This document shows positions 1 to 6,000 of a stretch of DNA of 64,000 bases, piece after piece (positions within the stretch are counted from its first letter, which is position 1; each line of letters starts with the position of its first letter). The position numbers were made by a program. Source of the stretch: Escherichia coli (GTDB taxonomy: Bacteria > Pseudomonadota > Gammaproteobacteria > Enterobacterales > Enterobacteriaceae); NCBI RefSeq assembly GCF_048403405.1, contig NZ_CP183135.1; one strand, written 5' to 3'.

Positions 1-3000
1 TTATGCCTGCTGTGGATTGCTGCTGTGTCCTGCTTATCCACAACATTTTGCGCACGGTTATGTGGACAAAATACCTGGTTACCCAGGCCGTGCCGGCACG
101 TTAACCGGGCTGCATCCGATGCAAGTGTGTCGCTGTCGCCGGCCTCCTCACCCGGTCACGTTTCGTCGTTCCTCCTCCACGCGCTGCGGCTTCGGGGCCG
201 CACCTGCATTCGTATGCGGTCGCCCGGTTACAGGTGCGGCACGGCCTGATGGAGGCCGCATGTGAGAGGAGAATTCCCATGCCAAACTGGTGCTCGAATC
301 GTATGTATTTTTCTGGTGAACCGGCACAGATCGCTGAGATTAAACGACTGGCCAGCGGTGCAGTCACACCACTTTATCGCCGCGCCACAAATGAAGGTAT
401 TCAGCTGTTTCTGGCCGGAAGTGCCGGACTTCTGCAGACCACTGAAGATGTGCGGTTTGAACCATGCCCCGGACTGACGGCTGCCGGGCGTGGCGTTGTA
501 TCGCCGGAGAATATCGCGTTCACCCGCTGGCTGACACACCTGCAGGACGGTGTACTGCTGGATGAGCAAAACTGCCTGATGCTGCATGAACTCTGGCTGC
601 AGAGCGGTACTGGACAGCGTCGCTGGGAAGGATTACCGGACGATGTCAGGGATACCATCACCGCACTTTTCACCGCAAAAAGAGGTGACTGGTGTGGCTT
701 CTGGAGTAACGAGGCTGTATCGGTGTGGTGGAACCGTCTGTGTGACAACGTACTGCCGGAAAAAACCATGCCGTTTGACCTGCTGACGGTTCTGCCCACC
801 CGCCTGGATGTTGAAGTGAATGGCTTTAACGGTGGTGTTCTGAACGGTGTTCTTTCTGCATATCACTGGTATACGGAACAGTATGGCGTGAAGTGGCCTG
901 TGGGGTATGAGGTGAATATCAGCAGTCAGGGAGACAACTTCATTCAGGTGGATTTCGACACGCCGTGGTGTCAGCCGGAAAGCGACGTTATTGCAGAATT
1001 AAGCCGCCGTTTCAGCTGCACAATGGAGCACTGGTATGCCGAACAGGGCTGCAATTTCTGTGGCTGGCAGCGATATGAGCGTGGCGAGCTTGTTGATGTG
1101 CTGTGGGGGGAGCTGGAATGGTCTTCCCCGACAGATGACGATGAGCTGCCGGAAGTCACCGGACCTGCGTGGATAGTCGACAATGTGGCGCATTATGGCG
1201 GATGAAGTATGACGGAGACGGGCGGGCAACCGCCCGTTTCTTTTCCGGTAAAGGATGTCGCCGGGCTCCTCTTTTTACTGCGCCGGCTGACGCGGCGCGG
1301 CAGGAACGCTGCCTGTGGTCAGTGTCCCGCGTCCGGTGGGCACGGGACGGGCGCTTTTACCGCTCCCGGCTGGCACCGGTGACAGTGTACGCCAGCCCGT
1401 CGCCCTTTTCTGATGAACGCCCTTCAAGCCGCTTTCGCGGCATAGCCTTGCCGTCAGAAAGACGACGGCTGCGGTATTCCACGGTCGGCCTGACCCGTTA
1501 CCGGACGCGGTGAACAGCCCACAGGCAGCGGGGAACGGGCACCACAGGGGTGCCCTCCCGGTGTCCTCTGTAAGAGAAGGAGCGTTGTTATGTCCCGTTT
1601 TGTCCTCGGTAACTGCATCGATGTTATGGCCCGTATTCCTGATAACGCCATTGATTTCATACTGACTGACCCGCCGTACCTCGTCGGTTTTCGTGACCGT
1701 TTCGGGCGCACCATCGCCGGCGATAAAACCGATGAATGGCTGCAACCGGCCTGTAATGAAATGTACCGCGTACTCAAAAAAGACGCGCTGATGGTGAGCT
1801 TCTACGGCTGGAACCGCGTCGATCGCTTTATGGCCGCCTGGAAAAATGCGGGATTCAGCGTTGTTGGTCACCTGGTCTTCACCAAAAACTACACATCGAA
1901 GGCCGCATATGTGGGCTATCGCCACGAATGCGCCTACATCCTGGCAAAAGGCCGTCCACGTCTGCCACAAAACCCGCTGCCGGACGTGCTGGGCTGGAAA
2001 TATTCGGGCAATCGTCATCACCCGACGGAAAAGCCCGTTACCAGCCTGCAACCGCTGATTGAGAGCTTCACACACCCGAACGCAATTGTGCTGGACCCGT
2101 TTGCAGGCAGCGGCTCAACCTGCGTCGTTGCCCTCCAGTCCGGACGCCGGTATATCGGTATCGAGCTGCTTGAACAGTATCACCGTGCCGGACAGCAACG
2201 ACTGGCCGCCGTGCAACGGGCCATGCAGCAGGGGGCCGCGAATGATAACTGGTTTGAACCGGAGGCTGCGTAAATGAACTATGCCGGACACGAAAAACTT
2301 CGCGCCGACGTGGCGGAGGTGGCCAACACCATGTGTGACCTTCGGGCCAGGCTGAACGATATGGAGCATCGCTGTCGCTTTGATTCCGATGTGCTTGTTG
2401 AACGCCTGACACGCCAGACGCTGTATCGCGCCAATCGCCTGTTCATGGAGGCGTATACCGAAATTCTGGAACTGGATTCCTGCTTCAAAGATTGAGAAGG
2501 AGACGAGAATGTACGGAACATGCGAAACGCTATGCCGGGAGCTGGCAGCAAAGTATCCGGGAAACACGCCGCTGATGCTGCTTATCTGGTCCCCGGAAGA
2601 GATTCAGGCCCTCGCTGACGGAATGGATATTTCTCTGTCCGATCATGAAATCAGAACCGTCCTGGCGCGCCTGGAGGACATCCCGGAAGACCAGCGGACT
2701 GAATCCGGTATTTCTTCCGGTGCGGCGATGGAGATTATCAATAACGTGAGAGAAAACCGCCAGGTGACCGTCCCTGCTGAACTGCTGGCGTCCCTGATTC
2801 AGACCGCCGAACAGGCACTGTGGAAACGTGAGTGGGCCGCCCGTGATAACGGCCTCGCCGTCCCGGAATGCGTCACCCGCCGACAGGCGGTGGTTAATCA
2901 GGCCCGCGCCCTGCTGAAAAACAACACACGCGAAAACGACTGATGTTATCGCCGCCTGCGGGCGGCGATTCAGGGAGACCATGAATCATGAACGAAACGC

Positions 3001-6000
3001 TGAATGCACTGATTTATCGCCACGCCAGCAACCTGCTGCTGGCGCAGGGCTGGCCGGAAGAGACGGATGTTGACCAGCGTAATCCGAAGTATCCGGGCTG
3101 GATCAGCATTTACGTGCGGCTGGATGTGCCCCGGCTGGCGACGTTACTTATCAACCGTCACGGCGGCGTACTGCCGCCGCTCCTGGCCTCCGCCATTCAG
3201 AAACTGACCGGAACCGGGGCGGAACTGGTACTGTCCGGCAGTCAGTGGCAGTCGCTGCCGGTACTTCCGGCAGACGGAACACAGGTGTTTTTCCCGTATG
3301 CCGGAGAATGGCTGACCGAAGACGAAATCAGGGCAGTTCTTGATGCAGTGCGCAATGCAGTACGAAGCATCTGTTACCAAGTGGCAGAAGATGCCCGGCG
3401 TATCCGGGCGGCGCTGACCACCACCGGTCAGACGTTGCTGACCCGCCAGACGCGCCGCTTTCGTCTGGTTGTGAAGGAAAGCGATTACCCCTGCTGGCTT
3501 GATGAAGATGACGAAAATCTGCCCGTGGTGCTCGATGCCATTCTGAACCGTGGCGCTCGTTTTTCGTCGGTGGAAATGTATCTGGTCAGTGAGTGTGTGG
3601 AGCATATCCTGTCCAGTGGGCTGGCCTGCGATGTGCTGCGTATACCTGATGAACCGTCCCGTCGCTGGTTTGACCGGGATATTCTGCGGGAGATGGTCCT
3701 GGAAGCCCGGACTGAAATCCGCAGCATGGCGGATGCACTGGCGAAAATCCGGAAATGATGACGCTGGCGGGGAAAATCTCCGCCTTTTCCAGCCGGTCCC
3801 CGGAAAGAGCAAAAGGATGTCGCCGCAGGCTCCGCTTTACCCGGCCATGCGGGGCATGGCCTTGTGGGTTTTCAGTTATGTGGCCTCAGCGTCGTGTGCG
3901 GGCTGTGCCGTGCCTCCATCGTAGCCGGGCTTCTGCGGGCGGGTTGCAAGGTAAGGTGAACCGCTGCGGTCACCCGGTCCCTCCTTCCCGTCTGCCGTGA
4001 TTTTCCGGTCGTTCACCCGCTCAGATTTCGCGGTCTCACCCTCCAACTCCCGTCAGCCGTGCGCGTCAGGCTGCGGCTTCCCTTGCGCCCTTGCAACCCT
4101 GCAGGCCCGGCAAAGATGGAGGCACGGCACCGCCCGGTGTCGCGGAATATGTGAACAACGGAGGAAATCCCATGCAGTATGCGAAACCTGTCACTCTGAA
4201 CGTTGAAGAGTGCGACCGTCTGTCTTTTCTGCCTTACCTGTTTGGCCTGGATTTTCTGTATGCCGAAGCGTCTGTATACGCGCTGGCGAAAAAAATGATG
4301 CCGGAATATGAAGGCGGATTCTGGCACTTCATCCGCCTGCCGGACGGTGGCGGTTACATGATGCCGGATGGCGACCGTTTTCATCTGGTCAACGGTGAAA
4401 ACTGGTTTGACCGTACCGTGAGTGCTGATGCCGCAGGCATCATTCTGACTTCCCTTGTGATTAACCGCCAGTTGTGGCTGTACCACGACAGCGGGGATGC
4501 AGGGTTGACACACCTGTACAGGATGCGCGATGCGCAGTTGTGGAGCCACATCGAATTTCACCCCGAATGCAACGCGATTTACGCGGCACTGGACTGATTA
4601 ACGGACGGGGCGGCAATGCCGCCCCTGTAAAGGAGACGAGAACATGTACTGTACTGTTAAAGAAATCATCCGCGATGTACTGGATACAGACGTGCCGGAC
4701 AGTGAATGCGTTTTTGCCGTGGTGCTGACCCGTGGGGATGTGCGCCACATAGCCCAGGACTGGAACCTGTCAGACGATGAGCTGGAAACCGTCATGCAGC
4801 GGCTGGACGATGCCTTTGAATATGGTGCGGATGTCAGCATTGTTCACGACGTTGTTCGTGAGCTGATGGAAGAAAAGCGTGCCAGCCGTCAGGTGACAGT
4901 TCCGGCGGTGATGCTGGAAAAAGTGATGGCGCTGGCAGGCAGTGAAATGAAGCGCCTGTATGCCGTCGGGAGTGAGAACGGGGGCGACGGTGATGCGTTC
5001 GTCAGGGAGGAACGCGAAGCAATGGACGTTGTGTTACAGGCGCTGGACGGGGAGCACATGTCATGAATATCAGCACAGAAACCCGCGAAATTCTGCGCAA
5101 TTACAAAGCCGTGATTAATGCGCGACGTCGTGAAATGGGGCAGAAACCGCTCACCACCGCGCAGATTGTTGATGAAATCTGCGATTTTGTGGCGAATCAG
5201 CAGGCTGTTTTCCTGGGCGGTCACTACATCTTACAGGGCAGCAGAAACAGGTGATACAGGGCAGGCGGTGAAGGCCGCCTGTCAGCCCGCGCGAAAACCC
5301 CTGGCAGGCTGACGCCTGCCGGAAGGGAAGCGGGCCACGCTGGCGCGTCGCCCGTTACCCTTCCCGTCTGTGATGTGTCTGACTCAGGAGTGTTTCTTTC
5401 TTATGTTATGGAACTGTTCCTGATGTTGTTGTTCCTTTATCTGCTGCTCTGATTCTGACTACTGCAGTGTTGTTCTGTCTGCCGGGCGCACCTTCGGCTC
5501 CCGGCTGCCTGGCGGCATCCGGTCGTCAGGCCCGACTCCGACAGGCAGCTGCTGGCGCACCTGCCAGTCTCCGCCGAACCCGCTGGCGCGGTTTCGGGCT
5601 GTCGCTACGGTCCGATGCGTGAAAACCACAGGCTTGCAGCGACCGTTCCGGTCGCGCCGCCTCTGTCGCGCCGTGGCCTGCGCTCCCGGCATCCCGGCAA
5701 AAGGCCGCCGGGATGTAAGGCGCAACGCCGTTTCGCGCACGCGCTCTCCGTCGTTGCGGCGGGTCCCTGCTCATTGCCTGCCGGGTGCCACACACCCGTA
5801 TGAGTCCCTGTCGCCGGGGGCTGATACAGCCACAACCTGCCGCACTGACTGTCTAGGGTAAATGAACAGCCCACAAAATTTTTTACCCAAAACCCGGTAA
5901 AAAATTTTGCGTTCTGCCCAGGACAGGTGCGTCAGGCCGTGGCAGTGATGCCCCTTGCGGCGAAGGTTCTCAAACGGGTGAAGTTCATACCACAGGGAAT

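Follow-up and report, generated by a model that had tools for sequence, protein, structure and literature searches.

The window analyzed here, a stretch of 64,000 nucleotides from the Escherichia coli contig NZ_CP183135.1, is the leading region of an IncF plasmid and contains two long, GC-rich spacers, one upstream of a DNA methylase gene and one upstream of a klcA/ardB antirestriction gene. Judged by sequence identity, these spacers are the already published single-strand DNA promoters ssp3 (1206-1589) and ssp2 (3759-4171), and the elements are not new. We consider it very probable that both are hairpin promoters of single-stranded DNA (ssDNA), which are switched on in the entering IncF strand. 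The original prediction, made from the sequence alone, had tentatively placed the two spacers into one second family of structured regulatory elements. Here, we found that they are two families (class 3 and class 2) and not one, and that they have only a terminal block of about 27 nt in common. The occurrence of this block in both classes, and the modular way in which it is distributed, is the sole point that may go beyond the published accounts.

Spacer 1 is bounded by the stop codon of a DUF1281 open reading frame (ORF) at 1205 and the methylase ATG at 1590 (1206-1589, 384 bp, 65.1% G+C), and spacer 2 by the stop codon of the upstream ORF at 3758 and the klcA ATG at 4172 (3759-4171, 413 bp, 64.2% G+C). 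For comparison, the G+C content of the window is 52.3%. These bounds and base compositions bear out the two long GC-rich spacers that had been predicted upstream of the methylase and the KlcA/ArdB gene. Both spacers follow a common layout, in which an upstream hairpin, the block, a hairpin of about 300 nt, the word CCCGGTGTC and a Shine-Dalgarno sequence succeed each other. When we applied a consensus scan, no duplex sigma-70 promoter was detected on either strand of either spacer, and the duplex terminator consensus scan of both spacers yielded nothing useful. No Rfam family reached its gathering score in either spacer.

Promoters of this kind were described by RNA sequencing of transconjugants of the IncI1 plasmid pESBL and of F (PMC12672017; NAR, December 2025). 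In pESBL, six operons were induced early, and each of the regions upstream (6/6) forms a large stem-loop in which a -35 and a -10 box are reconstituted; the screen used there asked for a stem-loop below -75 kcal/mol in 300 nt and the start sites were mapped via 5' rapid amplification of cDNA ends (5' RACE) (PMC12672017). Three classes were distinguished, namely class 1 (Frpo, ssi1-3), class 2 (before klcA and ardA) and class 3 (before M.EcoGIX), of which classes 2 and 3 are also conserved in F, and according to the text of that paper there is no sequence homology between the classes (PMC12672017). A preprint of January 2026 names the classes ssp1, ssp2 and ssp3 and shows the phenotypes of delta-ssp2 and ssp2::ssp3 in F (bioRxiv 10.64898/2026.01.09.698686). 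In this work, the ssp2 upstream of yfgB (the ArdB/KlcA homologue of F) stalls complementary-strand synthesis at the end of the stem until UvrD resolves it, and ssp3 has a promoter strength comparable to that of ssp2 and no roadblock activity (bioRxiv 10.64898/2026.01.09.698686).

We compared the window with pESBL (NC_018659) and F (NC_002483). The segment 1206-1595 is 98-99% identical to the M.EcoGIX leader of pESBL (L003:4399-4782; 384-390 nt) and 98% identical to the methylase leader of F (L045:6783-7166), and the methylase itself is 94% identical to M.EcoGIX (BLASTP, 213/227 vs pESBL). This near-identity extends over the full length of the element, and the downstream gene, the neighbourhood and the orientation relative to oriT are all as in pESBL and F. 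The copies differ in a few substitutions, some of them compensatory (GGGCACC/GGTGCCC here, GGGCGCC/GGCGCCC in F), and nothing functional sets the window copy apart. The segment 3759-4177 is about 88-90% identical to the klcA leader of pESBL, 87% identical to its ardA leader and 93% identical to the yfgB leader of F, and the KlcA protein is 95% identical to YfgB of F (BLASTP, 134/141). For ssp2 the downstream gene, the main stem and the -10-like TA(C/A)GAT hexamer are shared with pESBL and F. The difference is a variant middle section of the stem, in which CCTTGCAACCC...GGGTTGCAAGG stands in place of CCCTTGCAT... and the segment is 5 nt longer; the same variant occurs in three other loci (L006, L007, L042). 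The early induction, the 5' RACE starts and the roadblock would carry over to the window by analogy with these near-identical pESBL and F sequences.

The polarity of transfer decides which strand of a spacer is single-stranded on entry. The sequence on which it rests is the following:

19272..19287, minus strand: F-type oriT nick sequence GGGGTGT/GGTGCTTTT (slash, nick), exact match and single occurrence

The gene traM and the tra operon lie past this sequence on the plus strand. We take GGGGTGT/GGTGCTTTT to be the nick sequence of F and adopt the established polarity of F transfer. Since the nick sequence is found on the minus strand, the transferred strand is the minus strand, which enters with its 5' end leading, from about 19.28 kb in the direction of coordinate 1. 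The minus strand is also the template for the leading genes of the plus strand, and ssp3 is located in the leading region directly before such a gene, the methylase (start 1590), which is templated by the transferred strand.

Single-stranded, the minus strand of both elements is predicted to fold into long branched hairpins; the free energy calculated for ssp3 (390 nt) was -110.2 kcal/mol at z -7.5, and that for ssp2 was -106 kcal/mol at z -4.0. Since plasmid BLAST was saturated with near-identical IncF/IncI records, diverged homologues were collected via a protein search with the methylase (one genome per species), which yielded 40 loci. Homologues of ssp3 at 75-82% identity were found in Citrobacter, Raoultella, Enterobacter, Erwinia, Edwardsiella, Hafnia and Entomohabitans, and several plasmids that carry ssp3 homologues also carry ssp2 homologues at 76-82% identity. 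For ssp3, the consensus structure of 15 sequences (75-99% identity) had 98.2% of its cells paired and contained 13 compensatory pairs, a number which none of 500 shuffles reached (slid controls, 1 to 4). For ssp2 (12 sequences), 98.2% of the cells were likewise paired and 7 compensatory pairs were counted (slid controls, 0 to 2); its 22 compensatory cells (8.5 expected) and its covariation score were reached by 0/500 shuffles. The elements are thus clearly neither confined to this plasmid nor devoid of stable structure.

Of the two strands, the minus strand is the more stable one in all ssp3 (15/15) and all ssp2 (12/12) homologues, with mean differences of 5.1 and 7.5 kcal/mol. The stems are rich in G-T wobbles of the minus strand, which correspond to C-A mismatches on the plus strand or in an mRNA. 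Because of these wobbles and of the strand asymmetry in 27/27 homologues, the folding models point to the transferred DNA strand, and not to an RNA leader, as the folded molecule. Taken together, the literature on near-identical sequences, the folding, the strand asymmetry and the covariation support the earlier suggestion that the spacers are additional single-strand promoters or other structured elements of the transferred strand.

The anatomy of ssp3 is summarized by the following features:

1216..1245, plus strand: terminator-like hairpin (ACGGGCGG/CCGCCCGT and a T-rich tail) following the DUF1281 gene
1250..1589, minus strand: ssp3, class 3 single-strand DNA promoter, a long branched hairpin of the transferred strand before the M.EcoGIX-type methylase operon
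1307..1323, minus strand: distal arm of the ssp3 main stem, pairs with 1514-1530
1321..1326, minus strand: candidate ssp3 -10, GACACT on the non-template arm in an imperfectly paired stretch
1424..1431, minus strand: apical-junction segment of ssp3; with 1494-1498, pairs the continuous template stretch 1486-1498
1514..1530, minus strand: gene-proximal (template) arm of the ssp3 main stem, predicted start near 1523
1537..1555, minus strand: small hairpin P1 (GGGCACC/GGTGCCC), 7 pairs, 4 with compensatory changes, 100% paired
1590..2273, plus strand: DNA methylase gene (Pfam PF01555, 1.1e-40), Shine-Dalgarno AAGGAG at 1577-1582

The hairpin at 1216..1245 is upstream of ssp3 and outside the conserved element. 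Its stem is predicted, was unflagged by the consensus terminator scan and is not kept in diverged homologues. The main helix (1307-1323/1514-1530) comprises 15 pairs, of which 4 show compensatory changes (e.g., CG:9/UA:6, GC:9/UA:6). The candidate -10 reads (G/C)ACACT in most homologues and GAGACT in one; none of the 15 sequences deviates at the A, A and T of the hexamer or at the G after it, and the opposite template segment varies (TGAACAGC vs GTACAGGC). The continuous template stretch 1486-1498 has two separate pairing partners, one on either side of a three-way junction, and a candidate -35 is given by the non-template bases TTGA/CC across this junction, 18 nt upstream of GACACT. The corresponding plus strand of the duplex reads CTGACC (1490-1495), and according to the folding model a G-T wobble (GU:8/AU:7) would give the folded strand a better -35 candidate than the duplex has. 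Deduced from the candidate -10, transcription would start near 1523, and P1 would therefore be located in the 5' untranslated region (5' UTR).

Two minor matches concern this element. The sole Rfam match within the spacers was the small RNA Erse (RF02757) at 1355-1550 on the minus strand (20.5 bits vs a threshold of 138). It covers the apical block that is best conserved in ssp3, has the same orientation as the transferred strand and may be due to chance, or Erse may be derived from a related plasmid element. Furthermore, a 13-nt word (TGAACAGCCCACA) of the ssp3 template arm around the putative start (1511-1523) recurs exactly in the apical part of a class 1 element (5863-5875). This match is marginal when compared with shuffles (14/300) and is not kept in diverged ssp3, and it is probably a result of chance or local conversion.

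For ssp2 we assigned the following features:

3763..3790, plus strand: terminator-like hairpin (GGCGGGG/CTCCGCC and TTTT) after a 256-aa ORF and upstream of ssp2, stems predicted
3812..4171, minus strand: ssp2, class 2 single-strand DNA promoter, upstream of klcA/ardB
3899..3930, minus strand: distal (non-template) arm of the ssp2 main stem, pairs with 4105-4136
3918..3923, minus strand: candidate ssp2 -10, TACGAT
3944..3949, minus strand: candidate ssp2 -35, TTGCAA, pairs with 4091-4096 (TTGCAT or TTGTAT in homologues)
4105..4136, minus strand: gene-proximal (template) arm of the ssp2 main stem, predicted start near 4124
4172..4597, plus strand: klcA/ardB antirestriction gene (Pfam PF03230, 2.7e-26), Shine-Dalgarno GGAGG at 4160-4164

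The main-stem helices (3899-3930/4105-4136) contain 27 pairs, 2 of them compensatory, and the non-template arm reads ...CCTTGCAA-N20-TACGAT-GGAGGCACGGCAC... on the minus strand. All 12 ssp2 homologues have TA(C/A)GAT, with T, A, G, A and T being invariant, and related elements have TACAGT or TACCGT. The first three bases of this hexamer face a non-complementary loop of the template, the bases of which vary (TTT, AAAA, ACCA, AACA). A conserved hexamer opposite a variable template is what one would expect if a -10 were read on a non-template strand that is already open. A start near 4124 would leave a 5' UTR of about 48 nt. For both elements, the positions of the -35, the -10 and the start are predicted ones.

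The sequences of the two elements define two families. Profile hidden Markov models (HMMs), built with or without the shared block, recognized their own element at E 1e-88 to 1e-116, and no cross-match between ssp2 and ssp3 was obtained at E<=10 with the filters off. The class 1 copies were not matched by either profile. In local alignments with a class 1 copy of the window, ssp3 was marginal (14/300 shuffles reach its score, which is due to the 13-mer) and ssp2 remained below the shuffle mean (275/300 reach), and a repeat finder tied the spacers to class 1 only via one match of 25 nt at 80%. The earlier view that the spacers are distinct from the Frpo-like repeats is consistent with these data. 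Class 1 elements (Frpo1 and Frpo2 of F, ssi of ColIb-P9) resemble ssp2 and ssp3 as long, imperfect hairpins of the transferred strand that mimic a sigma-70 promoter, are active only while single-stranded and precede leading-region operons. However, they show no significant sequence similarity to either spacer, their hairpin architecture differs and their transcripts are those that have been shown to prime DNA synthesis. Candidates that resemble Frpo, namely Frpo' and Frpo*, which were found by structure and -35/-10 matching, are likewise predicted hairpin promoters before anti-defence genes of leading regions (Samuel et al. 2024, PMC11541004). In contrast to the spacers studied here (384 and 413 bp), the regulatory regions surveyed there had 50-350 bp (PMC11541004).

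The two families share a block at the gene-distal end, the copies of which are:

1250..1276, plus strand: block, ssp3 copy AAAGGATGTCGCCGGGCTCCTCTTTTT, with the core GATGTCGC at 1254-1261 and GCTCC at 1265-1269
3812..3838, plus strand: block, ssp2 copy AAAGGATGTCGCCGCAGGCTCCGCTTT; ssp2 homologues read AAGG(A/C)NGTC(G/C)CC-N-GCTCCGC

The word AAAGGATGTCGCCG is found exactly at 1250 and 3812, and no other site of the window matches it with 0 to 1 mismatch. The extended block (AAAGGATGTCGCCG--GGCTCCTCTTT in ssp3 vs AAAGGATGTCGCCGCAGGCTCCGCTTT in ssp2) agrees at 24 of 27 positions with an indel of 2 nt. The longest word common to the spacers has 14 nt (500 dinucleotide shuffles: mean 8.9, maximum 13), and the score of their local alignment was 38, as compared with 20.6 +/- 2.3 for the shuffles, none of which (0/500) reached it. 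The conserved block of the original prediction is thereby confirmed, and its 14-nt core is exact. Its spelling held as a match, but the two alternative positions '(g/c)(g/a)' are in fact a 2-nt indel (CA) and not two substitutions. As to the 'further short matches' that had been mentioned, CCCGGTGTC is indeed present in both spacers (1557 and 4133), about 30 nt before each ATG and at an equivalent place before each Shine-Dalgarno sequence, but as a 9-mer alone it is within chance.

Among the ssp3 homologues GATGTCGC is invariant (15/15), and across unrelated upstream contexts the homology starts exactly there. Similarly, the ardA copy of pESBL starts to align with the klcA copy exactly at the block. 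Going by these alignments, it is the GATGTCGC-N-GCTCC block that delimits both families on the gene-distal side when diverged plasmids are compared. The pattern G[AC]NGTC[GC]C-N1-9-GCTCC occurred 52 times in 511 kb of fetched sequence, 50 times on the strand of the leading genes and 2 times on the other strand. By chance, about 2 occurrences would be expected on both strands together; this is a rough estimate, and as the loci are homologous the copies are not independent. In 33 distinct plus-strand elements with an assigned gene, the block lies 271-361 nt before the start of a methylase, klcA or ardA gene. The block is common to class 2, class 3 and related single-strand promoters before these genes across Enterobacterales. 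It is oriented as GATGTCGC-N(1-9)-GCTCC on the coding strand, which corresponds to 5'-GGAGC-N-GCGACATC-3' on the transferred strand.

The distribution of the block is modular. A version of about 29 nt (GATGTCGCTGCGCTCCTCATTCAT) stands at the head of an ssp3 body in Erwinia and, in Klebsiella-type plasmids, at the head of an ssp2-like body before the methylase. The block is missing from the ssp3-like copies before DUF1281 genes in Citrobacter plasmids and from some ssp2-like copies (L008, L010 and others). Because of these absences, we regard it as a swappable module rather than as a mark of common descent, and it appears to behave as a conserved but exchangeable terminal module, which on the transferred strand is located at the hairpin's 3' foot. 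That it is a functional terminal module rather than a relic is a tentative idea, which we consider possible but rather doubtful. It might determine the outer closing helix and the place at which the incoming DNA polymerase encounters the hairpin, it might be bound by a protein of the host or of the plasmid, or it might serve as a recombination joint, at which hairpin promoter bodies are swapped before anti-restriction genes. Since the text of PMC12672017 speaks of no sequence homology between the classes, the block common to classes 2 and 3 may be a small detail that has possibly been unreported so far.

A common origin of both spacers as diverged copies of a single repeat family is the alternative that this block brings to mind. 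The shared 27 nt exceed chance by far, the layout of the two spacers is alike, and the GATGTCGCTGCGCTCCTCATTCAT version heads bodies of both kinds. However, no similarity was detectable outside the block, the profile HMMs with or without it never crossed at E<=10, the global alignment of the spacers was unconvincing and the hairpin architectures of ssp3 and ssp2 differ. The block is, moreover, absent from the Citrobacter ssp3-like copies before DUF1281 genes and from the ssp2-like copies mentioned above (L008, L010 and others). We therefore hold a single family to be improbable and retain two families with an exchangeable terminal block.

Several pairing partners were considered for the block. 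In the window ssp3 and a few other elements, GCTCCT (1265-1270) can pair with AGGAGC (1578-1583). As a general rule, the pairing of GCTCC(T/G)C with the ribosome-binding site, by which this anti-Shine-Dalgarno sequence would close the hairpin, was rejected, since a duplex test of the 33 distinct elements gave z values between -3.7 and +1.3, mostly near 0. The alignment consensus pairs GCTCC with GGAAC (1532-1536) in ssp3 and with a local partner in ssp2; these columns are invariant. When both family alignments were inspected, no conserved pairing partner for GATGTCGC was found. The closest candidate was the invariant ATGCCGC of the ssp3 apical block, which forms 6/8 pairs and has no counterpart in ssp2. 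The block was also rejected as a boundary of class 1, where TGTCGC-like words occur upstream of the cores at no fixed place or spacing.

A second ssp3-like copy is present in Citrobacter plasmids (L016:4041-4260, L009:4559-4776, L022:4046-4264). Its hairpin core is kept and GATGTCGC...GCTCC is absent. It precedes another gene, which in L016 and L022 is a DUF1281 gene, and its presence suggests that a single-strand promoter also controls the gene downstream of it in these three plasmids. In twelve loci of Klebsiella-type and related plasmids (L006, L008, L010-L014, L018, L020, L021, L031, L041), the methylase is preceded by an ssp2-like hairpin (about 310 nt upstream) and not by ssp3. These hairpins read GCCGTGCC..TAC.GTAGCCGGGC with a -10-like TACAGT. 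A given promoter class is therefore not tied to a particular downstream gene. In Betaproteobacteria (Achromobacter, Bordetella, Paraburkholderia; L032-L034, L037-L040), homologues of the methylase at 59-66% identity are preceded by unrelated regions, and the loci of Achromobacter and Bordetella show a short hairpin (GTGCAGTGCAATG...CATTGCTGCAC) directly ahead of the Shine-Dalgarno sequence.

According to the mechanism that we propose for ssp3 and ssp2, the minus strand would enter the recipient as ssDNA, 5' end first from the nick at about 19.28 kb, and each spacer would fold into an imperfect hairpin of roughly 240-340 nt. The stem would mimic a duplex sigma-70 promoter with mismatches around the -10, so that host RNA polymerase would initiate within the stem and transcribe outward along the entering strand. 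In this way, ssp3 would drive the operon headed by the M.EcoGIX-type methylase, and ssp2 would drive klcA/ardB and the genes after it. Synthesis of the complementary strand would iron out the hairpin and turn the promoter off, and anti-restriction functions would thus be expressed in a brief burst. In F, complementary-strand synthesis is additionally stalled by the hairpin of ssp2 until UvrD unwinds it (bioRxiv 10.64898/2026.01.09.698686), by which the burst would be prolonged. The elements would thus time the first minutes of plasmid establishment, in which the entering single strand may express a single-strand-specific methylase and ArdB/KlcA before restriction enzymes act, with ssp2 prolonging this phase. 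As a practical outcome, both spacers can be annotated as ssp3 and ssp2.

Established on the window itself are the identity to the published elements, the polarity, the hairpin stability, the strand asymmetry, the covariation and the lack of a duplex promoter, and nothing in the window sequence contradicts the assignment as ssDNA promoters. Some points weigh against it. The distance between the candidate -35 and -10 of ssp2 is 15-20 nt, which is unusual, and the assignment of this -35 is uncertain. The count of compensatory pairs in ssp2 is, taken alone, unexceptional (86/500 shuffles reach it), and since the homologues are mutually related the shuffle controls overstate significance for both elements and are indicative only. 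Finally, the roadblock result stems from a preprint on F and not from work on the plasmid of the window.

Other explanations of the spacers lead to different expectations. Structured 5' leader RNAs, which control the methylase and klcA at the RNA level like a riboswitch or an attenuator, would be long, GC-rich and conserved with a strong predicted structure, as the spacers are, and the covarying small hairpin at 1537-1555 would fall into the 5' UTR of the mRNA. However, the wobbles of the minus strand turn into C-A mismatches in the mRNA sense and the minus strand is the more stable one in 27/27 homologues. There is no Rfam family at gathering score and no duplex promoter upstream that would produce such a leader, and terminator-like hairpins precede both spacers. 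Moreover, the 5' RACE starts of pESBL are reported to agree with those predicted by the hairpin-promoter models (PMC12672017), and in our reading such transcripts would lack the distal arm. An RNA leader is thus very unlikely. It is even harder to believe that spacer 1 codes for the 103-aa 'hypothetical protein' WP_012615291.1, which RefSeq/PGAP annotates over ssp3 (1202-1513, plus strand) in many IncF/IncI plasmids. This annotation is the argument in its favor. On the other hand, Pfam gave no match for this or any other ORF inside the spacers, the longest open stretch shifts among the homologues between 48 and 119 codons in differing frames, indels of 1-2 nt are frequent and the region of the ORF start upstream of the GATGTCGC block is not conserved. 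Substitutions track the stems with compensatory pairs and not codons, and a sequence with 65% G+C is expected to hold long open frames. The entry looks spurious and is probably a false call in GC-rich non-coding DNA.

The spacers might also serve primarily as ssi/priming signals or as replication barriers for complementary-strand synthesis, with transcription being secondary. In favor of such a role, DNA synthesis is primed by Frpo transcripts in vitro, and class 1 elements start the conversion in vivo (PMC12672017; bioRxiv 10.64898/2026.01.09.698686), and ssp2 of F stalls the nascent strand at the stem end and needs UvrD (bioRxiv 10.64898/2026.01.09.698686). In contrast, early conversion events in F were seen downstream of ssp1 elements and not at the locus just downstream of ssp2, ssp3 is without roadblock activity, and the delta-ssp2 defect was partly rescued by replacement with ssp3, that is, by promoter activity alone (bioRxiv 10.64898/2026.01.09.698686). 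In addition, both elements are located directly before anti-restriction operons that are induced early (PMC12672017). We consider this explanation unlikely as the primary role, and for ssp2 we would rather regard the barrier as a second function beside that of an ssDNA promoter than as a competing explanation.

The first 8 kb of the window match at least 5000 plasmid records, mostly of Escherichia, Salmonella, Klebsiella and Shigella. The genes are arranged in the order DUF1281, DNA methylase, a small ORF, DUF1380, a hypothetical gene, antirestriction (KlcA/ArdB) and DUF1380, followed later by ssb, psiB, hok, ... an SLT transglycosylase (minus strand), traM, traJ, traY and the tra operon, and the order of the leading-region genes agrees with pESBL and F. 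For the three genes flanking the spacers, Pfam confirmed the assignments as DUF1281, N6_N4_Mtase and Antirestrict. The Frpo-like repeats of the region are:

5433-6071, 8761-9400 and 16498-17136: class 1 (Frpo-like) repeat copies, 76-98% identical among themselves

The class 1 copy at 5400-6100 folds at -181.7 kcal/mol (z -9.2). Together with ssp2 (class 2) and ssp3 (class 3), the three class 1 copies bring the single-strand promoters of the leading region to five. A further short promoter of this kind before the DUF1281 gene (100-290) was rejected, since its fold was no better than that of shuffles (z -1.0). This region contains the block-like word TGTCGCCGGCCTCCTC (about 139-155), and the ssp2 profile matches it weakly with its gene-proximal end (E 0.03-0.04); it may be a decayed or truncated element. 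A match of the ssp3 profile at 18628-18656 (E 0.004) turned out to be a simple GC hairpin, which is intergenic past the end of the oriT-proximal SLT gene and unrelated.

The Rfam family AS-pc01 (RF02875, 'Antisense to pHK01_035') was matched at 6195-6291 on the minus strand with 91 bits (gathering score 79), between the first class 1 copy and a small ORF at 6286. When compared with the 100%-matching plasmid p109 (NZ_CP023372), the window has about 2.7 kb extra from the second class 1 copy to ssb (9460-12122). The klcA gene is intact in the window; p109 carries an IS1 directly after ssp2, and in the window an IS1 copy is found at 55013-55683. Near-identical leading regions of enterobacterial IncF/IncI plasmids are also filed under Gram-positive genomes or metagenome-assembled genomes (MAGs), namely Streptomyces morookaense (L013, L028), a Collinsella MAG (L004), an Oscillibacter MAG (L007) and an Oscillospiraceae MAG (L030, L042). 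These contigs are most likely due to contamination or mis-binning.

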